Of a stretch of DNA of 64,000 nucleotides, positions 1,092 to 54,800 are shown piece by piece. Where the stretch lies: NCBI GenBank assembly GCA_905178155.1, contig CAJINV010000004.1, forward strand, positions 10,895,655-10,959,654. The letters run 5' to 3'. The translations under genes were made by a program, and so were the position numbers. The first letter of the stretch is position 1. The number at the start of each line of letters is the position of its first letter. The notes under the pieces were generated by a model. It saw only the letters and a list, made by a program, of their open reading frames with translations, ran no database searches and had not been told where the DNA came from. This DNA comes from Amoebophrya sp. A120 (lineage: Eukaryota > Protista > Dinoflagellata).

Positions 1092-3199
1092 ATGTTGTCC
1101 TCCGTGCTTCTGCGACGTTCCTGCAGCACGCAGACGCAGTCTCTTCGGAGAAGGAGTGCAAAAGCGACCTCCTGCGGCAGCCCGCTTTTCCTCTCAGTGA
1201 ACAGAAAAGCTTTCGCAGGAGCCGCGACGCCGTCACTCTCAACGACCCACGTTCCTGGAGCAAGCGTAGGAGGTGCGAGCGAGTCTTCGTCCTCGGCGAA
1301 GATAAATCAAAAGCCGCCGCAGCCTGCTCCCACGGCCGCATTGTCTACTAGCGCTTTTCATCCAGCATCGAAGTCCACTAGTACCGCTTCCTCGACCACG
1401 AGTAGTCCCTCCTCCTCGTCCAGCAGTAGCAGTAGCAGTCACAATCCAGTGCAGTCAACTACATTTTCTGCGACATCGTCAACATCAGCTGAAAATAAAG
1501 ATGAACAGCAACAGAAGATGATATCAAGTGTAAAAATGTCTGGGTCTGGAAGAATGCGCGATTTGTCATGCAGATTTTCCATGACCCATGAAATCTGGAA
1601 TGCAGGGCCTAGCATGACAGATTCTGTGCGATCTCTCTCATGCCTATCCTGCATGAGAAACTCCCGCCCGACTTGGTCAAAACTGGACGACTTTTGGTAA
1701 TCATGCAACACAGATTTTTACATGCTTCAGATTTAGCATGACAAGTTGTATTCTTCCAGACCCAGACACTTTTACATTTGATAGATGAACCACGACTACG
1801 ATTTCTGGTTTTTCGTCTCTAAGGGGTTCTATCAAAATGAAAAATCCCCCCGTGCCATATTGAAAAGCTATGCTTCCGGAAGTTTGTGTTGCTGATTTGA
1901 GGTCACAAATCATATGTGTCTTGCAAGACGACAAGGGCAGAAGCGGCCGGCCCACTATGGAAGCGGCTTGTCATGCTGTCGGGCTTAAAGGGGAGCCGTT
2001 TCCTATGCTGAACAAATAGACCAATACGCCCCTATGTAGCCTGGGGATCTGGCCGCAATGCCTTCCTGCAATACACGGCTTATTTGTGTACACAGATCCA
2101 GCATCAGAAATTTCGTTTTGATATGGGGAGGGGGGATTTTTCCTTGCAATAGGTTCGGCTGCGTTTTCACGGGCATCCTATTCTATTACCTCTACCAGGC
2201 AAACTGGTCAATTAAGCAGGCCGAAATTCGGTTTATCACGTGGTTCCGGACTTTACCACTGTATCCGCCACCGACCGCAAAGACGGCGATCCGGAACAGC
2301 GTCATTGACGAGGAAATCGGGAAAGAATTCAAAACGGAAAAGACGTTTTTCCTCCTGCAAAACTGGTTTCTGAAGAAGGACGCAGAATTGGCAAGAGGTA
2401 TTTATAATTGTCTTATATTGAATTATTGAATTTGTGAATATGCGAAGTCCAATATTCGGGTTCGTCTTTGTTTCCACCAGCGCATGATTGGCATGATTCA
2501 CTATTGTCATATGGAGTTCCTATGCGTTTTTGTGGAATCTGCTTTTTGTTTTTCCTTGAGTTCCAGCATTCAATCATTTAAAATAAAATCAAAATATCAA
2601 AAACAAAAAAAGGCGTGACCCGCGACGACGTGCTAATTTTCGTGGAGGATCAAGCCAAACTTTGCCGCGAGGGCGACAGCATTTGCCGGAAGTTTCTGCG
2701 GCAGAACGGCGACGGGGAGAAATCCGACGAGAAGTGCCGGCTGATTGGTGTCGGTTTAGAGGAGTTTCTGCACTTCATCAGCCGTATTTTGAGTGTCAAC
2801 GAAAAATCCGCGAACCTCGACCGGAAAGTTGCGGAGGAGGCAGTTGCCGCGGTGTTAATCGCAGCGGATCCGAGCCTTGGCAGGATGGGCAACTTCGCCA
2901 GAAGCAGAGCCGGACCGGGTGGGAACAGCACTGCAGGTTCGTTTTCTTCGACGGCGTTTATGACAGGTAGCGGAGCAGGAAGTTTGTCACCATCGGCTGC
3001 TGGTAAGCCCGAACCGGAACCGGAGCTGCACGAGATTCTGATGTACGAGAAAGCGAGACTGGAGGAAATTTTGGACGGGCTGCAGAGCTCCTCGCAACTG
3101 TCGTCCGCACAGCGAAGAACGCGGGCGAATGCCGCGGCAGAATTGGAAAAAGTAGAAAAAGATTTGGCGAAACTTCTTGCTGAGGGAAAGACGACATGA
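1092..3199 (+). CDS. Hypothetical membrane protein, possibly mitochondrion-targeted (~432 aa); exons 1092-1521, 1789-1829, 2157-2397, 2613-3199
   Basis: Removing two TIR elements (each with one 5-bp repeat copy) and one GT-AG intron (2398-2612) gives one open frame: ...QQKM-NHDYDFWFFVSKGF-GCVFTGILFYYLYQANW...ELARG-VTRDDV.... The N-terminus MLSSVLLRRSCSTQTQSLRRRS is Arg/Ser-rich like a mitochondrial presequence, and there is one hydrophobic segment. Confidence 0.75.
1522..1783. mobile_element. TIR introner/MITE, family A copy 1 (262 bp)
   Basis: Left end TATCAAGTGTAAAAATGTCTGGGTCTGGAAGAAT, right end ATTCTTCCAGACCCAGACACTTTTACATTTGATA. Direct repeat GATGA at 1517-1521 and 1784-1788. Confidence 0.93.
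1830..2151. mobile_element. TIR introner/MITE, family B copy 1 (322 bp)
   Basis: TATCAAAATGAAAAATCCCCCC...GGGGGGATTTTTCCTTGCAATA. Direct repeat GGTTC at 1825-1829 and 2152-2156. Homologous to 45327-45647. Confidence 0.92.
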
Positions 3200-3599
3200 T
3201 TGACAGCTACTTACAGAAGTACCACGAGGACGCGTCTTTAGTTTTTTCTGTGACTTCAACTCACTTCTGCAGCCTCGACGTAGACATCACAAAAAAAATG
3301 TTTTTCGTGACTCCATGCGTTTTTCTTTTTTCGTGTTCGGACAAGCGTTGTTGAGGCGTGACTCAACGCACTGGCTATGCGACGAAAAGTCCGAGTGCCA
3401 GGAGCAGGACAGAGATGATGATGAGTGCATGACTACCGCCTGCTTCCGAGTGTTGCGTGTGGGATTCGAGAGCGGGCGAGGAGTGGTTGATGCAGGTAGT
3501 AGTACGCGTGAACTGAAAAAGGCCATATAATCAGGACGATGCGTCCTCTACTGGTATTGCGATTGCGGTTCTTGCGGACCAAGTTCGCAATAAAAGCGC

Positions 3600-4215
3600 T
3601 GTCGCTGCTACACAGCCTGCGGCCGTTGCTTCGGCTGCAGAGCCCGGAAGGTTCGCAAAGTCGCATCCCAGGGCAGGAGCGGGCGTCTCTATCGACAAGA
3701 TACCACATGGCGCGACGAGGCTCCAGCGGTCGCGCGACAGCCTAGCAGCCGAAGTGGGGAACGGGAAGAGGTCTGCCGAAATAAGTCGGGGCCGGCGGAA
3801 AAGAAGACGCTGCACAAAAATTGCGACACGCAGATGGGAGCCCGGGCCGCGGGCGGTTTGGGACCGAAGGGCGGAAAGATCGGACCCGAGGCCCGCCGGT
3901 GTGTGCGAGCAGGCGCCCGGAGGGGCAACATTTTGGAAGCCGTGCCGGCGCCCGGTACTTTTCGGCCTTGCCACTTCTTCTGGCCGATGCAAGCCAGGCG
4001 CCGCGCGGTTTGATTGTGTGCGTGGCGCGCCATAGTCCCAGCAAGGCTTGGCCAGCTTCGGCCACATCGTTCTACCGGGCCCGGATTTCCGCCGCCCAGG
4101 CGCGAACGGGCAATCTGCGTGGTTTCGTCCATGATGCCCGCTCCCAATGATAGGGAGCCGAGTAGCCACCCGCGCGCCAGGCATTCAGGGTCGTAGCTGC
4201 CCGGGGCGTGCAACG
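3600..4215. other. GC-rich intergenic island 1
   Basis: Abrupt GC/CpG-rich block between AT-richer flanks. Only low-complexity Arg/Pro/Gly/Ala ORFs in all frames. Boundaries approximate. Confidence 0.5.
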
Positions 4216-5081
4216 GTAAATGTGTATGTGCCGCCCGCCAATTCGGTTTTATTTTTGGATCCATCAATCTTGCTGTTGCGGCTCCGGTTGAGCATTGGAA
4301 AGACAGAGCATTGCCACTTGAAGGACTGATCGTGTTCCAAAAACTCGTGACATACTGCCTTCTTGAGTCTTAGGAAAGCGCTGAATTTGGTTCAGGGCCA
4401 CATTATATTATCGTCACTTAGTAGCAAAGAGAAAGACCGAGGGAACACTCTACCTCGCGGGTGGCATCGCGAAACCGCACGTACACATGTGCCAAATACG
4501 TTGATGACGAGAACAAGCAGAGTGAAATTGGTGACTCAGATTTCAGGCGGAGCGAACGAAGAGCGCAGGCTTTAGCAAGTTGTTTTCGTGGCATGGTCGT
4601 TTGTATCTTTTTTTTTATCATTTTCATTTGTATGTTTGAAAGAATTAGGTGTTTAGCCCGATTATTTTTGATTGTAGGCCGATTACTTTATCAGCAACAG
4701 TTTTTGATCACGAGCGGCGCCAGTCATTGCAATCCGGGCCAACACTTGGCCTTGTGAGTGTGTCTGGCTGCGTGCCCCTATATTTCTACAACGGGCGACG
4801 CTCGGGACACAGTCGACCTTCGATATTTCTCAACATATCAATCGAAGGAAAGAGAGGTCGTGATCGCGATGAAAAGTTGAGAGCATCACTTTTGATACGG
4901 TACTTAATCCGGATGCGGAGATCCGAATCGGTATCCAAGAAAAGAAAGATGCGAAAAAAAAACCACATGCAATATATTTATAGACTTTGTTGGTGCTTCC
5001 AACATTATTTTGTCGCGTCAATCAGTGTTTTTTTTTGTACTAACATAGATACAGAAGTAGCAAGTACATCCAGCATTCAAA

Positions 5082-5839
5082 ATGCCGAATTCGAAGGACA
5101 CTGCTACACTGAAGCGACCACGGGACCACGACGATTTTCACAGTGTTAAATCCTCGCCTAGCTTCGTGGATGGTAAGGACTTACTTTGGCGAGTTCGTCA
5201 TTGTGTGTATGTATTTTTCTTGATGATAATGAAGTTCACAAGCAATCTATTGGGTTGCGAGATGAGGACAGAAAAATTTTGTGCGAGGCGGAAGAGGTGG
5301 AACATCATAATGTAGTAATAAGTCAAATTATAATTCACAGCACCGGACAAGCGAACACTTTTTACGAAAGAGAACGCTGCTGCGACCAAGAAAGCCAGAG
5401 CGAAGTCCCAGGTGCAGGCTCTGCTCGCGACAGGGAGAGGTATAGCACTACACTCTCACTGGTGGGGGAATGATCATAATGCCGGTGATCCGTCTCCTGG
5501 AGTTGACCTTTGCATGAAAACGGAGACCAGACTTTTGATATTCTGAAAAGAGAAATGCTAAAGGAAAGCGACCACACTTTTACATTCTTCGAAAAAACAG
5601 GGGTCAAAGACGTTGTGGAGATCCCGTCGGCGCCAAATGCAGGGTCAGCTGCGTCGAGTGTCGAGCCCGTCCAGACCCGGCCACTCAAGAAGCCCAGCCC
5701 AGAGCGAAAACCGCCGAGCGTGAAGGAGGCGCATGTGATCTCAAAGTCGCCTGAGGCTAAACGTAGAAAGCGAGATTCCGGCCCCGGTTCGGGGAAGAAG
5801 GGTGGACAGGAGGGCTCGTCGCTCGCGCACCAGGACTGA
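5082..5839 (+). CDS. Small Lys-rich hypothetical protein, paralogue 1 (~142 aa); exons 5082-5172, 5341-5439, 5601-5839
   Basis: Two phase-1 GT-AG introns join MPNSKDTATLKRPRDHDDFHSV...-APDKRTLFTKENAAATKKARAKSQVQALLATGR-GVKDVVEIP...SPEAKRRKR. Structure and motifs parallel the gene at 6577-7096. Confidence 0.65.
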
Positions 5840-6576
5840 GGCTGCAGGAAGTTTTACGCTTTTGCCGCAATGAAGATCTTTACAGAGGGTTGCTTTTGCT
5901 CCACTTTTTGCGAGATTTTGGAAATGAACTTGAAGAACGATACCAGCTGTAAATCAGTGCTCTGCAATGTATCATGGCAAGTATTGAGCTCCTTGCAACC
6001 TTTCTGTAATATGGTATATTTTTGTTTTCGGAACTGCTACGAGACTTCCTCTTGCTTCTGAACAATGATCAAGTTTCAAAAACACGGAGAGTGACAAAAA
6101 ATTCTTTCGGAGCTGCTACTATCTAACCGAAGGCACCACTGCTTATTGAGGGCAGAAGACAAACAGATTCGCACTGCAGCAGCGGATGCAAGAGACAGTT
6201 GCTCTTTGTATCGAGGATTCCGACATGGCGGTCGTCCTGGCTGCTTCAGGAATTTGTTCACACGGCTTCATCATGTCCTGATACAGGCAGTGCCTATGTA
6301 GTTTCTTCGTCGTTCGCAGAAGTACTATGTATCAGTCATCGTCGAAATGAATTCGTCTTCGATTTTCGTTGCTCTGCCGAATCGTCGTCGCACATCAACA
6401 TAGTAGAGTAAAAAGATCATGGTCAGGAGGTGAGAAATCAGTATGACGTTGACCGTAGAAGATCCGGTTTTTTGCTGCTCTTACTGACGCAGAAGCAGAA
6501 CCGCAGCGCCTTTTGAATAGGACAACTTTCGCTTTGTTCAGTATTTCTGTCTGAGTTTGACCAGCGTCTTTCCACT

Positions 6577-23974: not shown

Positions 23975-24022
23975 AGCAAATTTCTATTTCAACAGCAAAT
24001 TTCTATTTCAACAACCAAATTT
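23975..24022. repeat. 19-bp tandem repeat (AGCAAATTTCTATTTCAAC x2 plus a partial copy)
   Basis: Read directly in AT-rich intergenic DNA. Confidence 0.7.
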
Positions 24023-35686: not shown

Positions 35687-35721
<35 letters not shown>

Positions 35722-37111: not shown

Positions 37112-37153
<42 letters not shown>

Positions 37154-37214
37154 CATAAAAACAAAAAAAAAAATAGAAAGAAATAGAAAAAAAAAAAAAA
37201 AAAAAAAAAAAATA

Positions 37215-37256
<42 letters not shown>

Positions 37257-38853
37257 CAAAAAAAAAATAAAAACAAAACGCACAACTACAAAAAAAAAAA
37301 AAATAGAACAATAAAAAACAAAAAAATAAAAATAAAAAAAGAAAATAAAAGGAAAAATAAAAAAAAAAAAAAAAAAAAAATAGAAAACTAAAAAAAAAAA
37401 AAGATTAAAAAACTGCAAATAACAAAAAAAAACAACAAAAAAAAAAGAAAGAGAAAAAAAAAACAAATAAAAAAAACAATGAAAAAGAAAGAACAAAAAA
37501 AAAAAAAAGAAAAAATAAAAAAGTAAAAAGAAAAAAGATTAAACAAAAAAGAACAAAAAAAGAAAAAAAACCAAAAAAAAAAATAACAAAACAACAAAAA
37601 AAACAAAATAAAACAAAAGAAAAAAAGAATTAGAATTAAAAAGAAAAAAATATGAATAAAAAAAAAGAAAAAAAAAACACAAAATAAATAAGAAAACACA
37701 AAAAAAATTAACAAAAAAAAAAAAAACGCAAAACAAAAAAATAAAAAAAAACAAAACAAACACAAAAATAAAAAACAACTACATAAAAAAAACAAAAAGA
37801 AACTGAAATAAAAAAATAAAAAGAAAAAAAAAAAAAAAAAAAAAAAAGCAAAAAAACTCCACGAAAAAAAAAAAAAACGAATAACAAAAAAAAGAAAAAA
37901 GCAAATGAAGAAAAAAACAAAAAAAAAAAAGAAAATAAAAAAGAAAAACCAAAAAAAGAATACATTAAAAAGTAATACAAGCAATAAAAAGAAGAACAAA
38001 ACGAAAAAAAAAAACAAGATAGAGGAAAATGAAACAAAGAAGAAAAAGAAAAGATAAAAAAAAAAAAAAAAAAAAAAAAAGAAAAAAGAAAAAAAATACA
38101 AAAAAAAAGAAAAGAATGAGAAAAAAAAAAAAAAAAGCGAAATAAAAAAAAAAAAAAGATAAAAAAAAAAAAAAAAAAAAAAAAACGAGAACAAAAATAA
38201 AAAAGAAAAAAAAAAAAAAAAATAAACGAAAAAAAAGAAAAAAGAAAAAGCAAAAGACAAAACAAAAGAGACAAAAAAAACAAAAAAAACAACAACAACA
38301 GCAACAAAAAAAAAAAAAAAATTACAATCAAAAAAAACAGGAAAAAAAAAAAAGAAAAAACCGAACAAGAAAAACAAAAAAAGGAAAAAAAAAAAAGTAA
38401 AAGAAAAGAAAAAAAAAAAAAACATGAAAAACAAGAAAAGAAATAAAAAAAATAAAATACAAAAATAGCAAAAAAGAACAGAAGATTAAAGAAAAAGAAA
38501 AAATTATAAAAAAAAAAAAAATAAAATATAGAAAAAAAAAAAAAAAAAAGCATAAAAAAAAAACAAAAAAAAAAAAAAAAAATAAAAATAAAAAAAAAAA
38601 ACAAAATAAAAAAAGAAAAACGAATAATAGAAAAGCAAAAAAGAAAGAAAATAAAGAAAGAACAAAGAAAAAAAAATAAAAAAAAGAAAAAGAAAAGATG
38701 AAAGAAAAAAAAATTAAACAAAAAAATTTTCAAAAAAAAAAAAAAAAAAAAATAAAAAACATAAAAAAAAAAAACAAATAAAATAATAATAAAAAAAAAC
38801 AATAAAAAAAAAAATAAAAAAAAAAAAAAAAATAAAAATAGTAAAAAAGAAAG

Positions 38854-38885
<32 letters not shown>

Positions 38886-39846
38886 AGAAAAATTAAAAAT
38901 AAAAAAAACAAAAAAGAACAAAACAAAAAACAGAAAAAAAAAAAAAAAAAAAAAAGAAACAAAAAAAAAAAGAAAACATAAAAAAAACAAGCAAAAAAGA
39001 AAGAAACAAAAAAAAAAAAAACAAAAAAAATAAAAAAAAAAAAAAAAAAAACAAAAAAGAAAAGAAAAGAAGAGAAAACAAAAAAAACCGAAAAAAAGAC
39101 AGATAAAAGAAATGAAAAATAATACAAAAGAAAAAAAAAAGAAAAAAAAAAAAAAACCAAAACAGAAAAAAAGAAAAAAAAAGAGAAAAAAAAAAAAAAG
39201 AAAAACGAAGAAAAAAAAAAAAAGAAAAAAAAGAAAACAAAAAAAAAAAAAAAAGAAAAAAAAAAAAAGACAAAAGCAAAAAAAACAAAAACAAAAACAG
39301 CACAAAAAAAAGAAACAACGAAAAAAAAAAAAGAAGAACAAAGAAACCAAGAAACAGAAGAAAGAAAAACCGAAAAAAAAAAAAAGAAACAATAAAAGAA
39401 AAAAAAAGAAGCAAAAAAAAACAACGCAGTAGAAAAAAAAGAAAACGACATAAAAACAAAAAAAAACGAAAAAAAAAAAAAAGTAGCAAAAGAAGGAAAA
39501 AAAAATAACAAAAAAAAAAACATAATAAAAAAAAAAAAAAAGAAAAAAAAAAAAAAAACAACAAAAAAAACAAAAAATAAAAAACAAAAAAAAAAAAAAA
39601 AAAAGATTAAAATTAAAAAAAAAAAAAAAAAAAAAAAAGACAAAAAAAAGCAAAACGAAAAAACAGAAGCCAAAAAAGGAAAAACAAAAGAAAACAAAAA
39701 AAATACAATAAAAAAAGAAAAAAAAACGAAAACTAAATAAAAAAAACAAAAAATAAAAAACACAAAAGGAAAGACAAAAAAGAAAGAAAAGCAAAAAAAA
39801 AAAAAAAAAAAAAAGAAAGAAAAAAAAAAAAAAAAAAAAAAAAACA

Positions 39847-39878
<32 letters not shown>

Positions 39879-40026
39879 AAACAAAAAAAAAAATAAGCAA
39901 AAAAAAAAGAAAACAAAAAAAAAAAAAAACAAAACATATTCACAAAAAAAAAGAAAAAAAAAATAAAAAAAAAAAAAAACAAAAAAAGAAAGAAAAAGAA
40001 AATAAAGAAAGCGAAAAAAAAAAAAG
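35141..40026. repeat. ~4.9-kb aperiodic A-rich low-complexity tract, probably a long-read or assembly artefact
   Basis: Almost pure A runs with scattered C/G/T, no repeat unit, abrupt edges. It replaces the expected upstream exon of the next gene. Confidence 0.75.
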
Positions 40027-40291
40027 TATCAAATGTAAAAATGTCTGGGTCTGGAAGAATCCAACTTGTCATGCTGATTTTGGATTCTAAAAAAATCTGT
40101 ATTGCGTGAGCAGCAAAGAGAGTCCAAGTTTTGCTACACGGAAAGAGCATTTGTCATGCGGTATAGGCATCAGGAAGCCCTCACAAAATCTGTGATGCTA
40201 GGGCATGCATCACAGACATCAGGAGTCATGCAAAATGTGCATGACAAACCTGGCAATCTTCTTCCAGACCCAGACATTTTTACATTTGATA
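40027..40291. mobile_element. TIR introner/MITE, family A copy 2 (265 bp, inverted relative to copy 1)
   Basis: TATCAAATGTAAAAATGTCTGGGTCTGGAAGA...TCTTCCAGACCCAGACATTTTTACATTTGATA. Right flank ACAAG, left flank AAAAG at the edge of the A tract. Confidence 0.9.
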
Positions 40292-40296
40292 ACAAG

Positions 40297-43200
40297 TTCC
40301 CGACAGCAAGAAGCCGCAGAAGCGGTCGCAGTACGGCATCAACCCCGACCACGACTACAAAATGCAGCCGCTGAAGCCGAGACACGAAGAGGTCTACATC
40401 AACGGGGTTCGAATCCCGAAGAGGAAGTTCGACGAGACCTTCGTGTTTGCGGAGAAGGTTTTGAAGCGCAACGAACCTTTGACCTTCCCCTTCCGCGGCC
40501 TCGCCTGCGTGTGCGGGAAGCGCCGGACGGAGACTTCAAGGCAAAAAACCGTGATGGCGGGGGTCGAAGCGGCGCTCGCTCTGCGCCGGAAGGCGGGCGG
40601 TTTGACCGTGTCGGGTTTGGGCGCGATGACGAATTTGCTATCCACTAAGGGGTTTGAGTCGCTGCAGAACAGCGGGTTGCTCCAGGCGAAGGGCATGGGC
40701 ACGTTCGGGACGTTTGATCCGACGGATTTACCGCCGTTGGACACGAACGAGATGAACCAGCCGCACATGCCGGGACGCATGCTGAACACGCAGCACAACC
40801 TGCTTTCCCTGTACAAGAACCGGCTGATGCGGGGCGAGGATTTTGACCGCAAAATCGTGGACGACGACAACCATCTCCGCGACATCGAGGTGGAGATCAT
40901 GAAGCGCAAGCGGGCCGAGGACCCCGAGGAGGTCGAGCGGGTCCAGCGGGACGCGGAGCGCGCCGACCGCCGGTTGAAGCGGGAAGAGAGACGGCGGTTG
41001 CGCCGGGACCGCCGGGAAGGGCGCAGACAGGAGCGGATCTTGCTGGGGCAGAACCCGGACGACATCAGCAGCGACAGCAGCTCGTCCAGTTCGAGCAGTT
41101 CGTCCCGGTCCTCCCGGTCCGGGTCCTCCCGTTCGCGCGGGCGGCAGCGCGACAAGTCCGAAGACCGCGACGCGCCGTGGGACCCGATCGAACGCATGCG
41201 CCGAATGAAGATCGCGGACGAGATCAAGCGAAAGCAGGAGGAGGAGCGGGAGCGGAAGCACCTGGAAGACTTGGAGAAGTTGGAAAAGGCACTGCAACTG
41301 GAAGCGGACAGGAAGGGCATCACGGTGGACGAACTGCGCGTGTTGCAGGCGGAGGAAGCGGAGCGCGAGGAGCAGGAAAAGGCGGAGCGCTTGAAGAAGG
41401 AGGCGGAGGAGCAGGAGAAGCGCCGCCAGGCGATCTGCGCGGAGAAGGGCTGGGACATGCAGGAACTGCTGGAACGCGAGATTCTTGCCGCGGAGAACAA
41501 CTTGACCTTGGATCAACTGGAGCTTGCCATGAAGAAGGCGAGCTTCTGGAAGAAGAACAAAATACCCGACTGGTTTTTGACGGGGGACGATATGGAGGAC
41601 GACATTAGCAAATCTTCCCGGTCGGGCTCGCGCAGCCGATCCCGGTCCAGCAGCCGGTCCCGCTCTCGCTCTCGCAGCCGGTCTCGGTCCCGCAGTCGCC
41701 GCAGTAACTCCGGTTCATCTCGTTCCCGGCGTGGTGGTCGCGGGGGCAGCAAGAGCAAGACCTCGCTGTCCCGGGGCAGGAATAAGGAGCGGTCGAAGAA
41801 GCGGGCTCCGTACAACCCGCGGCGCGCGATGGATGCTGACGACGACGACGGCCCGGTGACCACGCTGGACCGCGAACAGGCCCAGCGGCTGAAGGGCAAG
41901 GGCAAGAAGGGAGGGAAAGGTAGTGGTAAGGGGAAAGGCAAGGGAGGCTTCGACCCGTTGACCGGTCTCGCGGTGGAAGAGGAGGAGGAAGACATGCACT
42001 TCCCCGGGTGGAACGTCGTGGAAGAGGACGTGGAGCGCGGCAAGAGTCTGATGCCGACCGTTGCGGGGATTCTCGGCAAAGACAAAGTTGCTGCGGAGGA
42101 GGACGGACCGTTAGGTGGTGTGCTGGACACGATGGCCGCTCCCGAGCAAGACTCGGTCGCCGGCTTCCTCGGCGGCGCGAAAAAGCGGCGTGGCAACCGC
42201 CCGGCCCGGCCGGACGAGATGCCGATCCCGGGCAACAAGGCGGCGGACTTGCGGGCGAAGAAGAATCCGAACTGGTTTGAGGAGAAGGGCGAAGGTGCCG
42301 AAGAGTTTCTGCAGGCCGCTGCGAATAAAGCGCGGGAAGAGTTTTTGAAGAAGGCTTTGAACTCTCTGAAGAAGGGTCAATCGCTCGAGTCCATCGACTT
42401 TGCCACGTTGATGAAGGAGGAGATGGACGCCGACGTGGACGGGGAGGACCAGCAGGAGAGCATGACGAAGCAGGGAAAGCGGGTCGTGTTCGGCGTGCAG
42501 AAGTCCACGAACTACCAGTACCAGGCGCAGCGGCAGGCGGGCACGAACGCGGGGACGACCACGAACCAGAAGCCGGTCGTGGGTGCGGGCATGAACACGC
42601 AATTTGCGCAGATCCAGGAGCAAGCGCGAATCGCGAAGGACGAGGCCACTTTGCGCACCATGGAGCAGATGCAGACGTTGCAGTCGATGGGCGGGTCGCT
42701 GATGGCGGGCGAAACGCCCGAGGAGGCGTTGATGCGACAGCAGATCGAAACCCACCTCCAGGGCGCGGGCGGCGGCATGGCGGCTCCGCGCATGGGCGAA
42801 GCGGTGCCTCTCACCGGTGGTGCGCAACTCGTGATGGCGCCGGCCCAGCCGAACCACCAGATGACGCTGGTGGACCCCCGGGCGGAAAAGAAGCGGCAGA
42901 AGAAGGAACAGAAGAAGAAGAAGCAGCTGGCCACGGCGTTGCAGAACTTGGACGCGGGAGACACTTTGGAATTGGACACTCTGACGCTGGAAAACATGGA
43001 TGAAGAAACGAAAAAGTTGATGACGAGCGATCTGGTTATCACCTCCACCGGTTCCGGGTGGATGTTGAAAAAGGTCGGGGACAAGGTCGTCAACCCGAAC
43101 GCCGGGAAAAAGAAAAACAAGATTACCACCGAGGCGCAGCAGGCCGCGGCCGACGAGATGGCCGAGCAGCAAGAACCCGCGCCGGTGATCGACCGGAACG

Positions 43201-46053
43201 AGATCACGTTGGACGACATCACCGACGACAAGATTGCGGCCTTGGAAGCGGAACAGAAAACCAAAATCGTGTCTTTGGACGATCGTCTGCGCGCGATGGA
43301 CGCCCTGCGCGAGCAGCAGCAACAGTTGAAGGACCGGCGAAAGCAGGAGCGCGCCGACCAGGGCTTGCCGCCAATCGAGGAGGGGAACGAGGAGGACGAG
43401 CTTGAAGGAGATGATGATGGCACAGGGGCGAATAAAGCCCCGGGCCTCGAACCCATGGTTGGCTATGGGCAGGAGCAGGGCCCCAGCATCCCCGCGGCCT
43501 TCGACAAATCCGGCGGGATCACGAAGAAGCGCAAGAACGAGGCTACCAACGAGAAGGAGGTGAACCTGGGGTCTATCTCCATCGTGGCGTACGGGCAGCA
43601 GGGCCCGCGGGACATGCTCAACGTCGAGGTCGACGAGGAGGGGAAAGTCACGACAAAAAAGAAGGACGATAAATCTAAAGCTGCTGTTCCTGCAAAAGAC
43701 GATGCGAACAAGGATGAGTTTGACGCTATGGTCTCCTCCAAGTTGGAGAAGGAACTCGCCGGGCAAACGAAGAAGGTCGGCCAGATCCTTCCCGGGTTCT
43801 TCGGCGGCAGCTCGAAGCAGAAGGAAGCTGCGACTCTGAAGCGCAAGTCGGACGAGGGGACGAGCGTCAGCGTCGGCGGCGCGGTGCCGAAAGCCGGGGG
43901 CAAGAAGCTGAAGATCACCACGGATGAGGACGAGGCGTTGCAGGAAGGAAAGAAGAAGAATTCCCTGAAGCGACAGAGCAACGACAACGTAGGTGATGAA
44001 ACCGCAACGAAGAAACCCTTCGGGTCGGTGCCGAAAGCGAAGGCACCAGTCAAGAAGGTGAAAAAGTTCACAATCGGGGGCGACGACAGCGGCAGTTCTT
44101 CGAGCAGCTCTTCCGACAGTTCCGATGACGACGAGTTCCACGACGCGAAGTCCAAGCCGTCCACCTCCCCGAAGGAGACGCCGGAGGAGGCGGAGCGCAA
44201 GCGGGCGGCGCGCGCGGCCCGAAAGGAGCGGGAGCGGCAGGAGAAGGTGCTGGCAAAGGCAGTGCCGAAGTCGGCGGCGGTTTCGGCGCAGCGCCCGGGC
44301 ACGGAAGGACAGGCGGTCGTGCAAAAGGATACTTATCAGCTGACGGACAACCAAAACACGGAGTCGTACGACCCGAACGAGGGCGAGGCTATGGACTACG
44401 TCCAGCAGCTGCAGATGCAAAACATGATGATGCAACAGTCTTACGCCTCCGTGATGCAATCCATCACCGACGAAGCCGCCGGACCGGGGGCGAACGGGCC
44501 GGTCCTGGGGCGGAAGATCTACAAGACCCGCATGTGTCGCTTCATGCACGAAAAGGGCTGGTGTCCGCACGGAGAAATCTGTACCTTCGCACACAACGTC
44601 GAGGAGCTGCCGCCATCGTACAAGAGGGAGCTGTGTCAGGCATTTCAGCTGCTCGGAACCTGTCAGCACGGAATCAACTGCAAATACGCACACGGTAAAT
44701 TATATGATTCTTGGATCTTTTCTTCATCTTCGAGCAATCGAATGATGCGATAGATAGATTGCCTCAGTACATCTTCATGTTGTACGTAGTACATAAGGAG
44801 AGCCAGCATTATTTGTTTTTGCATTTTCCCAGGAGCACACTAACATATAAGAATAACAAAAAAACAACAGGTGTCGCGGAACTCCGTGGTCAGCGTACGG
44901 CTGCTGGCGGCAAGTTCGTGGAGGACGACGACGAGAAGATCGTGTGCGAGGACGTTACCGGCTTTGGTTCCGGTGCGAACAACGTGCCGCTCGGGACCCC
45001 CACCTTTAGTGCCGACGCCGCGCCCCCACCGCCGCAGCGGCAGCAACCCCCACCAGCACCCGCGAAACCCCTGCCAAATATGCGCACCCTGACGGAGAGC
45101 TCCATTCCGGCGGAGAGCCACATTCCCGGGTTCAGCCAGACTATGCTGCAGGCATCTATGGCGCGGTCCCAACCCAAGGCCGCGGGTTTAAGAGAGAGAA
45201 TGGGCGGCGACGGGACGGCGAGTGCCGTGATGCGCGATGTCGATGACGAGGAAAGAAGAGACCATCGTCGAGGAGGAGATCGGGAAGAGAAGGGCCGAGA
45301 CGGCGGTGGGAGCCGAAACAAGGACGTATCAAAAGGAAAAATCCCCCCACCCCATATCGAAAACGTATCCGTCTGAAAATTTGTGATGCGCATTTGTGAC
45401 CTCAAATCCTGTCTGTCGTGCAAGAAGGCAAGTCCAGAAAGCCTTCCGCATTTTGCAGGCGGTTTGCCATGCTGTTTGGCTTAGAGCATACACGTTTGTC
45501 ATGCTAGGCGCCTACGTCAAAGCCTCTCGGCTGAGGCTTGGCATATGCCTGCACTCCTCTACTGCAATACAAATCTGATTTGTGTATGGAAATCCAGCAT
45601 CAGAAACTTCGTTTCGATATGGGGAGGGGGGATTTTTTCTTTTGATAGGACGGCTACTGGGACAAGAACGGCGAGTTTCAGTTCACTGGTGGAGGCAAGA
45701 AACGCGAGGAAAACCTATCAAATGTAAAAATGTCTGGGTCTGGAAGATTTCTAGATTTGTCATGCATATTTTCCATGACCCATGATGTCTGTGATGCATT
45801 TCGTAGCACTACAGACTCTTAGAGCGCTTTATGATACCTCTACCGCATGAAAAAAGAAATGCCTTCTCCGCGTAGCATAAACTGGAGCCCTCTTGCTAGT
45901 CATGCAATACAAATTTTTTCAGAATCCAGAGACAGCATCACAAGTTTAGAATGTTCCAGACCCAGACATATTTGCATTTGATACAACCGGGAGGACGACT
46001 ACCAGAGAAGTCGCCGGGAAGAACGCGAGAGGGAACGCGACTACGGGAGATAA
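40297..46053 (+). CDS. RS-rich tandem CCCH zinc-finger protein, paralogue 1 (5' end missing, >1,650 aa); exons <40297-44694, 44871-45326, 45653-45715, 45989-46053
   Basis: RSRSRS tracts and coiled-coil. YKTRMCRFMHEKGWCPHGEICTFAH and YKRELCQAFQLLGTCQHGINCKYAH (TIS11-type C-x8-C-x5-C-x3-H). GT-AG intron 44695-44870. Removing two TIR elements gives NKD-GYWDKNG...EEN-REDDY...RDYGR*. Confidence 0.85.
45327..45647. mobile_element. TIR introner/MITE, family B copy 2 (321 bp)
   Basis: TATCAAAAGGAAAAATCCCCCCACCCCATATCGAAA...TTTCGATATGGGGAGGGGGGATTTTTTCTTTTGATA. Direct repeat GGACG. Confidence 0.93.
45716..45983. mobile_element. TIR introner/MITE, family A copy 3 (268 bp, same orientation as copy 1)
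   Basis: TATCAAATGTAAAAATGTCTGGGTCTGGAA...TTCCAGACCCAGACATATTTGCATTTGATA. Direct repeat AAACC/CAACC. Confidence 0.9.
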
Positions 46054-48809
46054 GGAAATGGTATGGAAATATCATCATGGAGTTTATGGTCAACCTCAAC
46101 ATACTTACAACTACATCAACAACGTCTGTTCATCTTTTTCTTTGCATTCCTCGCTCTCTATCTAAGTCAAGAACCAGTATCCATGTCAAGCGTGGACGAT
46201 ATGCCAATCTGTATCTATGCCGATGGATCATGATTTTTATTTCGATTCGTTTGTCTAAGTTCAGTTGACAATTGAAATAAAAACAAAAACAGGTATCGCA
46301 CGACCAAACAAGTAGGGAATTGCATGATCGACATGGAGCTACTGGAATCACTACCGATACGATTGAGGTATCACAATTACAACCGCAACTTGTCGTGGAT
46401 CGTGATGTAGTTGATGCAATACTTCTTGCTAAGTTTTACGTGATCGACGACACATGAAACTTATTCTCAGTGTGATTGAGCAGATTCAGGAGGACAAATC
46501 AAACCTTAAGGTTAACCTAAGTATTATTCTACACTGAATTAAAGGTACAACTACAACCTCATGGCGACAGCACGGGGAGAAACGAAAAGGAACACTGAAA
46601 CCCGTTGTGGAAAAATCCGATTCTACCGATAACGATGTCATGCTCATGCCTATTAGTCGCGAAAAATTGATTGTCCACAAAACCGAATAGTAAATTTTTC
46701 ATTTTCGCAGAACAAAGACAAACATCATCGTCAACATCAACTTCAACAGAAAGCAAGTTTAAGTGTAGTTTATCTGAAGCATCTGAGTCGGTGGATCTTT
46801 GTCTTTCGACAAAGATGCTTCATCTTCTTGTGTCAAGAATACAGAATTGTATATTCTTCCCGATTGCAGTAAAAGCATTTATTTTCTGCAATCGAGTAAC
46901 CATACGTCAGCGACCAATTAATACGAAGATAGATGAAGCTGTTGCTGCCCCCGGCAGGTGCCACGAAGACAACAGTTTCGAAGAAAAAAATGTCATGGGC
47001 ATCACGACCAAAAAAAACATCCTTTGAACATCAGTTGGGCGCCACTGCCATGACTCTGGACTATTGCCAAAATAGTTTGCAGAAGCAGAAGAAGCTGATC
47101 GTATTCGATGATAGTGGAGCAAGATAGATGACCTTCATAATTTCACCGCTTAACTTCATCCAACTTGAGCCTCTTTCCTGATCTGTACCTATTTGAACCT
47201 GAATTTCACCGCTACAAACTGGCTACAGCTAGAAGACTTGTATTGTCTGACTGATGAAAATATCAATTTCATCTCAGATTTTTTGGAGATAATGCCTTTT
47301 GCTTCATCTCTTGGTATAGTTGTTTGGAAAAGAAAACACAAAAGCGAGCCCGGGTTTCGGCCTGGGCATCACCTGCGCCGATGCGTCGGTAGTTTTTTTT
47401 TCGCCCCTCTGCGAGAGTGTTCGAGAGCTTTTTTCCAAAATGGCTTTGATAAAACTTGATGCACGCGTGCGTCAGTCGTCAAAGCTTCCGCTGCGTTATG
47501 TTGTATTGGGGGGTCTCGGTGTCTTGGAATGCAGAAGGTCGCCTTGGAAAATCCATCAGCAAGAAACAGTGCGCGAGCTTGTACCGGACATTTTTTTTTC
47601 ATTTTTGAAACTGAGTAATTCGCCCTTTCTGCAGATGGAGCAAATTTTGCACCACGTAAAAATGCTCAAGACGCGCTGCACCCCACTTGATGAATCCTTT
47701 ATAGATCCTGCCGCAGGAGCAATTGTTGCCTTTTTGCAAGCGATCTAAAATATCATGCATGCAAACGTAGAAGAACCAACACCAAGCTGCAGTCATCTTG
47801 TAGTCTTGTCTTGTCTTCGGACGCTGCACTAAATCATCGCTTCCGTCGGATTGGAACTCGTCGCTTCTAAAAATGCGAAACGAGCGAATGTAAGCAGCTT
47901 AAGTCGCGACTTTGAGCATCGCATGAGGTTGCATTCTCCATCGAGTTTTCATCGAAAAGCAATTTCGCGAATTTTGCAGACATCGTATCTATACGTACTG
48001 ATCGAGTTCTTGCACAACCCATAGAAGTAAAACAAAAAGTCCACCACTCCATACCATAAATCACGAAATTTGCCACCTAAGCATGAAATTGAAAGTGAAT
48101 ACTTTCATCCACTGCGAAGCAGCAATATTTCACGTCTATGAAATTGAAAACCTATTAAGATGAAGTAGACACTGATGCATAATGACACCAGATGAGTACT
48201 ACGACGAAGTGCGACGAGAACAAAAAATGAATTTTGATCCTGTTCACCAAAACCTGATGCACGCAAAGGTCCTCAAAATGCGAACTCTTACCCCCTACTT
48301 CTCGGTATTACAACGCCAAATCTATTCCATACCCGCACCAGATTGATCGCTCTACTTCCATGCTACCCTGTCCAGACAATTTCCAGCAAAAAAAAATCGA
48401 CCATAGCTGCAGCGAAAAGACAAAAGCAACCTTGAGGACTACAACAAATTTGAACTGACGTCCAGCTACAACGAACTTTTTAGGCTCAACAAACTGATTC
48501 ATTTTTGTCTATCATAAACACGGATATAATCTCGTACCCGCTCCGAATTTGGCTTGCTTGTGTTTGCATTTGTCAGTTTCTCATCTTCGGATAGACATTG
48601 CTTTTGCCTTCTGGTGTAGGACCACGACTGCCTCCTGTCTGGAGAAATCGCAATCTTAGTTCTATTGCAAGAATCTCTACTTCTACCACCAGAAACGCAA
48701 AGGCAAAGTCTCCTTTGAACAGAACTGAACGACAAGCGCTGCATAAAGCATTCCAGGAATTGGGAGTGGTGTACGTAGTGTTTTCATTCCAATAAGACCG
48801 ATTTCGGCT

Positions 48810-51800
48810 ATGCCATGGAAAACTGCGGAGCATATTAACCACGAGGTGCCCCCCAGCAACATGCAGACGACAAAATCGAAATCGAATTCGCTCTCCCGGT
48901 CCCGCGGGCGGCGACGGTCCGGCAGTCGCAGCAGCAGCAGCTCCCGTTCGCGCGGTCGGGGCAAGAGCTCCTCCCGCAGTCGCGGCCGGACCCCGTCGCG
49001 CGATCGCGGCCGCCGGCAAGATAAAAGTCGCAGGGAAGATTCCCGTTCCCGCGGAAATCGTCGCCGGGATCAGGAGTCCCGGTCCCGCCGGAGAGAGGAC
49101 GAAGCTGCGCGAGGCGGAAATGCCAAGGGGGACAAGAAAGGCAAGGGTAAAAAGGGAAAGAAGCAAGGATACAGCAACGACAATGAGCAGGATCATGCAG
49201 CTCCCGGCTCCAAATTCGACCCTTTAGCCGGTCTCGGCGGCGACGATGAGCTCGAATTCGTGGACGGGAAGGACGCTCGCGGAAAGTCGAGGAAGCAGAA
49301 AGAAGAAGATGAGGAATACAACGATGAACGTGGCTGGAATACCGTCGCGGAACAGGACGAGCAGAACATCAAACCCGGTACGTCAGGAAGTGATGATCAA
49401 CCAGACGACACTGGCGCAGCGGAAAATAACGACGACAACGGCAGCACCAAATCGGCGGAGCAGCTTCTGAAGGACATCGCGAACAAGGCGCGGGAAGAGT
49501 TCCTGAAGCGCGCCTTGCAGGGCCAGTCCGTGGACTCGATCGACTTTGCGAGTCTGATGAAAAGCGCAGCGGCAGGAGGTGAACAAGGGGAGCAAGATGG
49601 GGATGACGAAGAACAAGACAGCAGTTCGCCAAAAGGACATCAGAATCAAAACCCGTCTTCTCCGCAAGGAATGAATTCATCGTCGGGAGGTATCAAGCTC
49701 AAGATCAAGCCCGCGGGTGCGAACACCGTTTTCACGAATTTACAGGAGCAAGCGAGACTCGCGCGCGAAGCCCAGGAGAAGATGAAGGAGGCGCAGGACG
49801 GGATGAATTATCGGCTCAGCGGCGAAACGGAGGAGCAGATGCAGATGCGGCTGCAAATCGAAGAGTTTCAGAAACAACAAAGGGAGCAGTACTTGGCAGC
49901 GAAAGCGGCAGCGGAGGCAGCAAAGGCCGAACAGGGCGAGGAGGAGGAGGCGGACGAGGTCGTCGTCGAGAGGATCAAAACGCCAGCGGAACTCGCGGCC
50001 GAGGCGGTCCGGAAAAAGCGCAAAAAGGAGATGAAGCGCCAAAAGCGCATCGCGTTGAATATACTAGGTTTAAAGCCCGGCGACTCCATCGAATTCGACA
50101 ACGCGAGCTGGAAGGGGTTGGCAGAGGCAACGAAAAAACTGATCACCGGCGACTTGGTCCTAACCTTCGCCGTCGGCGGCTGGGTCGTGAAGCGGATGGG
50201 AGAGCCAGAAGCTGCAGTAGAAGATGGTGATGGTGAAGACCAAGATGTTGACCAAGAGATGAAAGATAGCAGTGAACAACAAAATGAGCCCGTTCTTTCT
50301 ACTGGAGACGCTGAAGTAGAGGAGAAGGTGGACATCACCGAAGAAGATGGCACGACCACAAAAGCTGCCGCCGCAGAGAACGATGAGGAAGGTGAATCAG
50401 AAGAGACGAAAAAGGACGTCGTCGAGAAAAAAGCAAAAGCTCCCGCTCGCCCGACCGGCCCAAGACAGCTGAAAGTGACTGCGGCCGACGAGATCTCCTC
50501 TGACGAGGAGGAGGATGACACAGGGGTGGCCACGACCACTGGGACGAACAAGAACGACAAAACCACGAGCTTGAAACGGCCAAAGGAGGATGTCGATGTG
50601 GAACAAGACGAAGTTGAAGACAGCAACCAAGGTCCGGACTTCGAAGCCGCGAAGGAGTACGACGGCAGCCGTGAGGGGTACGTGTTCAAGACGGGAAAGA
50701 AGGGGCTGGGGTACTACCGAGACACGTTTGGAAAAATCGAGTCAAAACCGAAAAAAGACAAGCCGATGACGGAAGAAGAGGAAAAGGAACTAAAGAAAAA
50801 GAAATTAGCCGACGCCCTGACCAAATCCGGCGGTGCGATTTCCCGCGCGCCGGAGATTAACACCACCGGTGTGCTCGCCCGGCAGATGGAGCAGGAGGTG
50901 AAGGAAATGTATCCTATGTAAAAACGTACCCACACCATAGTTGTAATGCAAATCTGCATGCTGAAAATGTTTCTCATGCGGAGCCCCATGAGAAGCAGTT
51001 TCTAGTCGTGTTTTGCAATTTGTCATGCTCCAATCAGCATGGTATGCGAGGTCTGTGATGCTGCTGAGCTAGCTCAAACAGCACTACACTACGAATCCAA
51101 ATTTGTGATGCAAAACAGCCAAAACTTGTGGATTTGTCTAGCCGATTCCCCATCTTGACTATGGTGTGGGTACGTTTTTACTCAGGATAAAATGCAAAAC
51201 ATCTTCTACGACAAGGACGGCAAGCCGGTGCACATGTCGGACACGACTGGTACGCAACGGATCGATTTCGAGCAAGCGGGGTTGAATGTGGGGTCCGTGG
51301 TGATGGCGGATGGATACTCCCTCGCCGCGGTCGAACACGACGAGTACCGACCGACAGACCAGGTTGCGGACAGTTGGGCGACGCCTTTGGAACAGGAGAA
51401 GATGTACAACAAAACCAACTTTGACGAAAAGGGGCGGTTCCCGATAAACGTCGAAGCCAAGGCGAAGGTGGCCGCCACGCGGGTCCTGCGGAAGCCCAAG
51501 GCGCAGGCGTACGCGCTGGGCGAACGGATGGCGCTTGCGAAGGCGAACGCCAAGGCAGCGGCAGAGGCGGAAAAGGCAGCCCAGGAGGGAGAACAGGTTC
51601 CTGTGGACCAAAACAACGTCTATGTTGATCAGCAACGGCAAGGTCCTCCAGGTGGAGTCGTCGCTCAGGCCGAAGAGGGCGTTCCTGGAGAAGAAGATGG
51701 TGAACTAGAAGTAGAAGAGGTGGAGTCCAGTAGCTCGGAAGAGCGCAGCGACGACGACGAGGAGACGCGGAAGCGCAAGCGGAAGAAGGCCAAGAAAAAG

Positions 51801-54800
51801 GCCAAAAAGGAGAAGAAGCGGCAAAAGCAGCTCGAGCAAATGGGCAAACCCATCCCGAAGTCCGCATCGGTGTCCTTGCGTCGACCGGGGATGGACGGAC
51901 AGACGGTGATGGTACAAAAGGACGAGTTATGGATTGCAAAAATGTCTGGGTCTGGATGATTGCAACTTGTCATGCTAAATCTGAATCAGGCAAAAAACTG
52001 TGTTGCATGATTGCCAAAAGTGGCGCACTTTTGACCTAATCGAGAGGCAGTTTCTCATGCAGGATACGCATTAGAAAGGTCCTCCCGCAGAATCTGTCAT
52101 ACTATGTCCTACATATCAGACCTCATGGGTCATGGAAAACCTGCATGACAAGTCTGGCAATCTTTCAGACCCAGACAGTTTTGCAATCCATACGAGTACG
52201 AACTGAGCGATAACCAGAACAACCGCGTGTACGATTCCGGCGACCCGAACGAGGGCGAGGCCATGGAATACGTGCAGCAGCTGCAGATGCAGAACATGAT
52301 GATGCAACAGTCCTACGCGCACGTGATGCAGTCCATCACGGACGACGCGGCCGGGCTGGGCGGCACCGGGGCGGTGTTGGGACGGAAGATCTACAAGACG
52401 CGAATGTGTCGGTTCATGCACGAGAAGGGCTGGTGTCCGCACGGAGAAATCTGTACCTTCGCGCACAACGTCGAGGAGCTGCCGCCATCGTACAAGAGGG
52501 AGTTGTGTCAGGCGTTCCAGCTGCTGGGAACCTGTCAGCACGGGATCAATTGCAAATACGCACACGGTAAGTCGCGTCTTCTATCTCATATTGCAAGTTC
52601 GTTCTTGTGAATCAGCACTGCTAAGGCAGCAGTAGCAATCTCAAGTCAACTACTAAAGTCAAACGAACCTGGTGCTTAAGGCTTACAGAAATTAGTTCCT
52701 ACCCTTGTTCCCGAAAGCTTAGGTTTGAAAAAAATGGAGTTACAGATATTAGCTCTCAGGATTTCCGCCGCATCACGAAATTCTTGACGCAGCGAAGATC
52801 CTGGAAATAATTTCTGAAAGCTACCTGCGTAAGATTTGTCTTCTCACTGGTAATACCGATCTGGGCACAAATCTTATGCAGGTGACTTACAGAAATTAGT
52901 TCCCAGGATTTGCGTGCTGCGTCTCCAATCGCCTCACTTGGACACACTGATGTCAGTGTGTCCAAGTGAGGCGATTGGAGACACAACACGCAAATCCCAG
53001 GAGTGCATTTCTTTGAGGCACGAACGCTGAAGCTGTAGGCGCGCGAGTTCTGATGTGCTCTTACGGAAGAAAGCTCGCGCAGCAGCTTTTTCCTCCTGGC
53101 CTTCTACAAGTGTGCTGCTGAACACATGTACAGAGCGATCTGCTTTTTCTTCTAGGGAGAAGACGCAGCTTCTGCTAGAAGAAGAAGCAGCTTCTTCTAG
53201 AAGCTGCGTTTTCTAGAAGAAAAAAAGTCTGCGTCTTCTACAGGAAGACCAGTCTTCTAGAAGAAGACAAAACTTCGTTGCGTAGGATTTGCAGTCAGGT
53301 CGGGATTACCGATCGAAATGCAGATCCTACGCAACCGACTTACAGAAATGAGTTCCCAGGATTTCTTCTAGAACAATCTCAAGGCGCCTCTGAGGCACCT
53401 TGAGACTCTAGAAGAAATCCTTTGAGAGTCTAAAAGAAATCCGTTGGATTTCTTTTAGACTCTAAAAGAAGTCTTCTTGACTTCTTCTTGTCCAAATGGG
53501 GTGATTGCAGAAAAAAAGCGGAAATCCTGGGAACTCATTTCTGTAAGTCCGTTGCGTAGGATTTGCACTCAGCTGGGGATTACCGGTCGAAACGCAGATC
53601 CTACGCAACCTACTTACAGAAATGGGCTCCCAGGGTCCCACATCCGAGAATTCCTCGGATGTGAGTTCACATCCGAGGACCTCCTGGATGTGAGCTGACA
53701 TCTTCCGAGAATTCCTCGGATGTCAGCTCACATCCGAGAACTTCGCGGATGTGAGATGTCAGAGAACTTTCACACGCAAAGTGCCAAAGTTTGGCCCCCT
53801 GCTCGTGAAAGTTCGATCCACGTGTCCAAACGAGGCGATTGTAGAAAAAAAGCGGAAATCCTGGGAACTAATTTCTGCAGTAGCAATCTCAAGTCAACTA
53901 CTAAAGTCAAACGAACCTGGTGCAGCTGCCTGGTTAGGTCCAAACTAAAAACTTCCCATCTCTTTGATACTTATAACATGTACCTGTAGCAGCTACAGCA
54001 GTTTCCAAACGCAAATCCAACATTTTTGCGGATGACCACATTACAATCAATGGAAAACAGGTGTTGCCGAGTTGCGTGGGCAGCGTACCGCCGCGGGCGG
54101 TAGATTCGTGGAGGAGGATGAGGACAAGATCATGTGCGAGGACGTGACCGGTTTTGGCGGTAATGCCGCCCCACCCGCACCCGCGCCTGGCGGTCTGGCA
54201 CCGCCAAGAGCGGATACCACGGGGCTGAGACGGCTCCCAGGTTCGGGAATCGACAGCACGAGCATGATTCCGGGCGCGATGAGCTCGGGCATAGGTAGCT
54301 CGATGATCCCCGGGGGCGGCGGGGGCATCGGCAGCGCGTTGCCGAAGGCGGGGTCGCTGCAGAGTCGGATCAACCGACCCATGGGGGTGGGCATCGCCTC
54401 CGGCATGCTGCCCTCGAGCATGGGCACGGGCGTGCCGCCGAGCGGGATCGCGAGCGGCATTTTGAGCGGGCTGGTGTCCCACGGAGCGCTAATCCCCAAC
54501 GCCGGGTTCAACGTTGGGATAAACACGAAGAAACCGGAGTTCGAGGGCAAAAACAACAAGGACGACGGTGACAAAAATGGAAGAGGACGCGGCGACCGCC
54601 GGGTGCGCAACGCGACGGACGACGTGCTGACCAAGGCGTACGAAGACGAGAAGGCCCGGGCGATGGGCGCAAAGTCCTTCTACGAGCAGGGCGGCATCGC
54701 GTCCGCCATCCGACCCGATTTGGCGTTCGGCAACCGGCAGTCCGAGCAGTCCAAGCGCGAGGCCCGGGGCAGGGAGCTCCGAGGCGAACGGCGAGACCGC

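Follow-up and report, generated by a model that had tools for sequence, protein, structure and literature searches.

An internal word shared by dissimilar introner families of Amoebophrya sp. A120, a probable protein-binding site

The 64-kb window analysed here (the whole stretch of 64,000 nucleotides from contig CAJINV010000004.1 of Amoebophrya sp. A120) contains twelve short elements with TAT…ATA inverted ends, labelled A1 to A4, B1, B2, C, D, E1, E2, F and G, which belong to otherwise dissimilar families. The question raised by this locus is why all of these elements carry the same nine-letter word, TTGTCATGC, and what such a word could do. A first-pass annotation had noticed it in every one of them and had proposed a common binding site for a transposase or excision factor, uniting the families into one system.

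A word common to unalignable families

Within the window the observation itself was borne out: there are 19 exact copies (12 on the plus and 7 on the minus strand; shuffled sequences have 0.66 on average and 3 at most), and all lie inside the twelve elements. Fifteen of the 19 positions originally given are correct and four were off by 1 bp (these copies lie at 1968, 18674, 26455 and 40151), and a variant, TTGTCATAC, is indeed present at 18628. A scan for TAT…ATA inverted ends that was blind to the word returned 14 candidates outside the A-rich tract at 35144-40025; twelve are the same elements and together contain all 19 exact copies, and the remaining two (34179-35669 and 44390-44795) have neither the word nor a 5-bp duplication nor a match to a family profile, such profiles matching the twelve elements only. 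No exact orphan copy was found in the 61 kb of the window outside the elements, and a degenerate form of the word, YTSTVATGC, has 43 matches in the window, 40 of them within the 2,936 bp made up by the elements. The impression that the word often lies 30-45 bp inside an end also stood, with 12 of the 19 exact copies at this distance and 9 of these 12 pointing inwards.

An independent sample was drawn by a scan with the end of family 0 (the family of A1 to A4), which gave at least 148 loci; wide flanks were taken for 80 of them, merging into 598 kb. All but two sampled loci are JACKZZ01 contigs, one of whose proteins clusters with an A120 protein. Two loci, L046 and L119 (18 kb), are chance matches without elements, by their look probably bacterial; they were kept in the denominators of the counts of target-site duplications (TSDs), elements and 9-mers and removed for family-profile and intron counts. 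Motif-blind calling in the 598 kb yielded 381 elements, 311 with a perfect TSD, versus 1-15 for each of eight control triplets. The exact word is present in 265 of the 381, i.e. it is not absent from most other TAT…ATA elements, which the annotation had named as an outcome that would count against it, and YTSTVATGC is present in 371; outside family 0, with which the sample had been seeded, 113 of 214 elements have the exact word. A count inside versus outside elements, as the annotation had proposed, comes to 433 copies in 96,247 bp inside and 201 in 501,762 bp outside, so that the claim of no full word outside elements held for the window and failed for the other loci; 147 of these 201 copies are in element-homologous pieces and 54 are not.

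The elements fall into 13 families with three or more members and 16 singletons. All 13 families carry the motif, YTSTVATGC being present in 370 of the 377 members of families, of which 12 are window elements, and in 13 of the 16 singletons. TTGTCATGC is the top 9-mer shared across the 13 families and stands in nine of their 13 consensuses (at most four in 300 shuffles); once terminal inverted repeats (TIRs) and sites are masked, just a single 19-bp match connects any two consensuses. The shared word can be written as AAT-YTSTVATGC-A, most often TTGTCATGC, with a fuller profile of about RRAAT-YTGTVWTGC-WRAW; variation is tolerated mainly at positions 1, 3 and 5, as for a binding site, and there are about 2-6 sites per element. 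Our data thus support the view that families with otherwise unalignable interiors are united by one word.

The arrangement of the sites is also conserved. At the family level there are 52 sites in the 13 families, in direct and in inverted order, with the outermost inward-pointing site 31-32 bp from the end for five of the families and 40-43 bp for four others. Ten of 30 same-strand adjacent spacings, found in eight families, measure 30-33.5 bp (P=0.00045), i.e. three turns of B-DNA at 10.5 bp per turn. A 10.5-bp phasing of all sites, strong with copy weighting, fails when tested per family site (p=0.068 for all sites, p=0.96 beyond 46 bp), and therefore only the offsets of 31-32 and 40-43 bp and the spacing of 30-33.5 bp are retained here. 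One conserved cis-element with a fixed geometry marks the families as one system. That the motif, in degenerate form, also makes up the terminal repeat was considered and discarded, profile scores being negative and offset 1 ranking first in 3-4 of the 13 families.

How the sites are maintained can be read from 182 disjoint nearest-neighbour pairs of elements, compared in four bins of divergence, the closest of which holds only 10 pairs picked for low interior divergence. Across these bins the interior differs by 3.5, 7.9, 15.2 and 29.1%, while the fixed motif positions differ by 3.3, 4.0, 4.7 and 6.5%, with a floor close to the TSD mismatch rate of 4.0%; the latter is a clock that runs from insertion on, and a lower bound because near-perfect TSDs were required. 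Exonic and non-exonic copies retain equal numbers of sites (p=0.50). As the fixed positions stay low while the interior climbs, selection keeps the sites intact through successive copying and lets them decay once an element has inserted, which is the pattern of a transposition signal.

Transposons in the DNA, introns in the RNA

The elements themselves are Amoebophrya sp. A120 introners, a known kind, since their ends and direct repeats fit the published description and a DHHC open reading frame (ORF) of the window matches an A120 protein in 223 of 244 residues, the remainder being one 21-residue gap. The A120 genome paper describes tens of thousands of such introns in up to 1,954 families, with inverted repeats of TAT, seven variable bases and AAA and direct repeats of 3-5 nt, and leaves their mobilization and splicing unexplained (Farhat et al. 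2021; PMC7789003). In the window, left ends of TAT, seven variable bases and at least three A are found in 10 of the 12 elements (the exceptions are C and F), and the 5-bp TSD is perfect in seven, has four of five bases in four and three of five in one. In the 381 independent elements, termini are TAT(C/G), A occupies positions 11-13 in 88-94% of the 762 ends and TSD sequences are unbiased and random-like; a perfect 5-bp repeat flanks 297 of 446 TAT candidates in these loci versus 0-1 for nine other triplets.

The terminal repeat falls into two parts, i.e. TAT and a weakly paired stretch at positions 5-8 are followed by the A-tract and a family-specific arm. Across all 13 families the arms were seen to pair well at positions 1-3 and 11-14 and, in most, poorly at about positions 5-8, and terminal positions 16-30 are family-specific, often with short 6-bp repeats. 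The window elements measure 110-322 bp and are non-coding; short, with TIRs, TSDs and many dispersed copies, they are MITEs (miniature transposable elements with inverted repeats), or non-autonomous TIR transposons. Summed contig depth reaches about 10^4 versus 45, with loose ends at element borders (run X6).

An ‘excision factor’, the second option of the annotation, is at odds with the finding that the elements remain in the DNA and leave the RNA as introns. The RNA evidence consists of contigs from four runs of one sample, whose RNA label is a guess, yet these contigs skip GT-AG introns and have A-tails. In all four contig sets, D, E1, F and E2 are removed by 115, 161, 315 and 147 nt, i.e. 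element plus 5 nt in each case, and without GT-AG ends; introner C has no RNA joint in these contigs, and the other seven elements lie outside them. The imperfect TSDs show that the cut cannot come after TSD base 4 in E1 (25944-26110) or ahead of it in E2 (31787-31938), so that, if one rule holds, the intron would begin 1 nt ahead of TAT and finish 4 nt past ATA, as judged from these two copies. With this N+TAT…ATA+NNNN register the first T of the element would be the +2 T of the donor, and the donors predicted for 236 copies are GT in 79, AT in 61, CT in 53 and TT in 43, with acceptors free, a mix that broadly resembles the donors tabulated for A120 families; the candidate register would explain odd NT donors and free acceptors alike. 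Long frames reappear in 92 of 205 locus copies when the element plus 5 nt is taken out, versus 51-54 for plus 3, 4, 6 or 7 nt. Hairpins are strong in both copies folded among the twelve (z = -9.7 for E2 and -11.8 for D), and an Rfam search gave no match.

Readers of the word: mover, host or spliceosome

What, then, could the word be for? It is probably, though by no means certainly, a binding site in double-stranded DNA for one transposition protein, which we infer, common to all TAT…ATA families. Such a protein would bind in tandem to sites separated by about three helical turns and help to pair both ends, a DDE-type enzyme would cut at TAT…ATA and insert with a 5-bp stagger, and the family-specific inner arms would provide an RNA stem, making the copy spliceable in either orientation. 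To this extent the earlier proposal of a transposase site common to the families is upheld, as the word links unalignable families and behaves as a DNA-level site conserved through copying; a transposase-only reading, however, leaves the enrichment in predicted TIR-less GT-AG introns, described below, unexplained.

If the word acted instead in the RNA, as a branch-point-like splicing signal or a substitute for U1 recognition in non-canonical introns, this would be in line with elements being spliced without GT-AG ends, with U1 being reported as undetected in A120 (PMC7789003) and with slight sense excesses. The host strand was called for 291 elements (locus-level calls equal element-level calls in 53 of 53, and Pfam matches are on the called strands). 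These have 671 sense versus 619 antisense sites, with no sense site in 25 and no antisense site in 27 of the 291, and per-site retention does not depend on the strand (odds ratio 1.12, p=0.40), i.e. the strand bias that an RNA signal should leave is not significant overall. Family 0 inserts in both orientations (55 versus 56), 20 of 250 copies in predicted coding segments (a loose set, because the coding model was trained on excised loci) lack a sense site and 23 an antisense site, and the sites of the 65 best predicted TIR-less introns, 12 sense and 13 antisense, show no strand bias. A strict RNA signal is unlikely and a splicing role of the word altogether quite improbable, whereas there may be a weak preference for the sense strand. 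It is barely credible that the word has no function and is simply left over from an ancestor that all families share. Common descent as such is plausible because all families share TAT ends and the A-tract at positions 11-15; an idle relic, however, is largely refuted by fixed positions whose conservation in distant pairs is about four times that of the interior (6.5 versus 29.1% divergence) and by sites that occupy several non-homologous places per family and show position-specific degeneracy.

A possible, if doubtful, alternative is that introns are marked, or the chromatin over them organized, by a DNA-binding protein which belongs to the host or was domesticated, with motif-bearing introners being better tolerated or spliced and the motif outlasting the ends. 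It draws on the 54 exact orphan copies without element similarity, where about four are expected; 44 remain after a stricter mask, and a relaxed end search explains 2-5 of the 54 as intact elements. Predicted introns (57 kb) hold 26 of the exact orphans, predicted exons (175 kb) hold 3 and other DNA (129 kb) holds 13, i.e. the word is not equally frequent in exons, the other outcome that the annotation had held against its claim. Among 228 predicted GT-AG introns 10 are element-like, and the other 218 were analysed; the parser is crude, with 3 of 10 calls in a test stretch exact versus RNA and 6 of 10 overlapping. No 8-mer is more enriched than the motif in these 218 introns. A spacing of 31-33 bp separates the sites in nine of 21 orphan pairs, and in signals of inverted repeats, TSDs or hairpins the motif-bearing TIR-less introns do not exceed other introns. 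One such predicted intron (4456-4711 of L013), backed by Pfam domain continuity, has an exact motif and splits a C-5 cytosine DNA methyltransferase gene at 2625-6080, and a variant site occurs in one of six RNA-verified GT-AG introns of the window. What speaks against the host factor is that fixed positions decay at the TSD rate in young elements, that exonic copies keep no more sites than non-exonic ones, that the motif is carried by just 34 of the 218 introns, called by a crude parser, that at least one orphan intron, in L048, retains a family 1 trace visible by eye and that fixed distances from the TAT end better suit end recognition. The word is thus not exclusive to elements, and its intron enrichment hints at a host role: either host selection preserves the sites in old introners whose ends are gone, or there are young families still unrecognized.

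Several observations also weigh against a transposition protein as the reader of the word. The 218 predicted introns have 18 exact sites where about one is expected (about 16-fold) and 24 tolerated variants (3.3 expected), next to 12 broken ones, i.e. one-mismatch words at fixed positions (9.4 expected). Immobile relics under transposase-only selection should show more decayed variants; with so few broken ones, a neutral decay of 20% is rejected (P=1e-4). Sense copies exceed antisense copies among exact words (183 versus 140), in the one-sided families 4 and 7 (21 versus 9) and in predicted TIR-less introns (31 versus 18). A near inward site is present at both ends in 217 of 377 elements, at one end in 136 and at neither in 24, and at the family level deep sites show no significant helical phasing (R=0.03 beyond 46 bp). 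Moreover, no transposase was found in the 125 longest of 244 long ORFs, from a sample of less than 1% of the genome, and the text of Farhat et al. reports none in A120 (PMC7789003).

The search for an autonomous mover in this sample found none. Long TAT…ATA candidates proved to be chance joins or captured DNA; one family-5-like element of 1,104 bp (L016, 505-1608) has a perfect TSD and a GC-rich, internally repetitive insert with no convincing ORF. The ORFs of L060, a 20,354-bp contig, have no mobile-element domain; the part of it analysed here has a perfect inverted repeat, from 3300 to about 5450 versus the other end of the contig, with a 1,362-aa ORF without Pfam matches, either an artefact or a large inverted duplication. 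Viral contigs gave no match to the family-0 end, and their four matches to the paired motif come from two phage sequences without such elements.

A transposition protein and a host mark could also be one and the same. A pair of TTGTCATGC words at a distance of three helical turns would then be an orientation-free DNA mark, and one protein would mobilize all A120 introners and, once domesticated, mark host introns. We consider this rather unlikely. If true, introners would turn into ordinary GT-AG introns as their inverted ends are lost and the mark is kept, which would amount to a transposon-derived, DNA-level intron-definition system in a genome apparently without U1.

Compared with known systems, the elements are known and the motif is apparently an unreported cis-element of the introner system, akin to subterminal binding repeats. 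The inverted-repeat pattern, direct repeats, hairpin and splicing as non-canonical introns agree with the account of A120 introners in PMC7789003, which, unlike ours, argues against general mobilization by transposases and leaves splice sites variable; a uniform 5-bp TSD, the shared internal site and the candidate fixed splice register are added here. Gozashti et al. 2025 (PMC12130899) classify A120 TIR introners as DNA elements and list family fam38 as Ginger-like, with a 5-bp TSD, TA/TA termini and Copia/Gypsy-like ORFs. A shared internal motif is not named in the text or supplement legends of PMC7789003 (figures or logos could show it), nor a subterminal one in the text of PMC12130899 or in 12 of its 14 supplement files, nor such a motif in the accessible portions of PMC9860276, PMC11282704 and PMC12005148. 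A full-text literature search with the motif strings returned unrelated papers only, one for introners, internal motif and families returned none, and the literature on Amoebophrya introns and transposases, as listed, does not mention the motif.

Emigrant is a MITE with subterminal repeats that are bound cooperatively by a trans-acting transposon protein, Lemi1 (PMC1636448); it is one family with a known pogo-like partner, whereas at least 13 families with unrelated interiors and intron copies are involved here. The short subterminal repeats of En/Spm, in both orientations and apart from the terminal repeat, are bound by TnpA, which is needed for transposition and able to affect host transcripts (PMC2613891). 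En/Spm has CACTA ends and a 3-bp TSD, in contrast to TAT ends and a 5-bp TSD in the introners, which therefore do not belong to the CACTA group. Elements of the Ginger2/Tdd type resemble the introners in that TDD-4/5 make 5-bp TSDs and TAT is one base from TGT, but have TGTNR termini and mostly 4-bp, sequence-biased TSDs (PMC2836005), unlike TAT and unbiased 5-bp TSDs; a TGT control gave no perfect TSD in our loci. An integrase-like enzyme for these elements is a lead only, which comes from fam38. The motif could serve as a bait for pulling down the mover and as a query for finding the autonomous element, and its persistence in TIR-less GT-AG introns could trace the route from introner to ordinary intron.

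Individual elements and neighbouring features

No strand is assigned to any of the twelve elements, and sites are given below with their strand and, where near an end, with the distance from it in brackets. In family 0, A1 (1522-1783, TSD GATGA/GATGA) has exact sites at 1563+ (41 bp) and 1736- (39 bp) and variants at 1612-, 1635+ and 1651-, and a plus-strand frame opens once the element and 5 nt are taken out. A2 (40027-40291, AAAAG/ACAAG) has exact sites at 40066+ (39 bp), 40151+ and 40239- (44 bp) and variants at 40190+ and 40207-; A3 (45716-45983, AAACC/CAACC) an exact site at 45757+ (41 bp) and variants at 45789+, 32 bp further, and 45935- (40 bp); and A4 (51928-52192, CGAGT/CGAGT) exact sites at 51967+ (39 bp) and 52143- (41 bp) and variants at 52052+ and 52068-. 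Family 3 comprises B1 (1830-2151, GGTTC/GGTTC), with an exact site at 1968+ and a variant at 2101- (42 bp), and B2 (45327-45647, GGACG/GGACG), exact at 45496+ and variant at 45381+ and 45597- (42 bp). Introner C of family 8 (18587-18821, CAACG/CAATG) is exact at 18674-, with variants at 18628+ (the TTGTCATAC mentioned above), 18723+ and 18771- (42 bp). All sites of G, from family 4 (50910-51189, AAATG/AAATG), are on one strand, exact at 51020+ and variant at 50941+ (31 bp), 50971+, 51053+ and 51103+. The family 1 introner E2 (31792-31933, CTCCT/CCCTT) has exact sites at 31834- and 31890+.

The remaining three elements, together with two GT-AG introns, break a host transcript of the BT1 transporter family (24719-28317, plus strand; Pfam BT1 matches in three ORFs), all exons of which are connected by a single RNA contig that terminates in A's. 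D, from family 7 (25563-25672, GTACG/GTACG), has two exact sites 32 bp apart, 25595+ and 25627+ (32 and 64 bp); E1 of family 1 (25950-26105, CGGAA/CGGAG) has an exact site at 26049+ and, 31 bp away, a variant at 26018+; and F of family 5 (26198-26507, ACACG/ACACG) is exact at 26374- and 26455- (44 bp) and variant at 26239+ (41 bp) and 26342-. A GT-AG intron without inverted ends at 25194-25297 (plus strand), with an RNA joint in all four runs, has one variant site, CTGTCATGC, on the minus strand at 25251. Another GT-AG intron, at 30216-30406, uses alternative 3' splice sites, with 30370 joined in one run and 30404 in three.

Elsewhere in the window, the tract at 35144-40025 (4.9 kb, about 80% A, aperiodic) breaks into an ORF and ends at introner A2; it may be an artefact of long-read assembly. 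Nested palindromes and inverted repeats with arms of up to 146 nt occupy 52690-53880, without TAT…ATA ends or the motif. Finally, genes at 40293-46050 and 48747-52570 have a near-identical stretch (at about 44391 and 52262) before CCCH-like zinc fingers; carrying different introners, these neighbours are likely paralogues and could be used as empty-site controls for each other.

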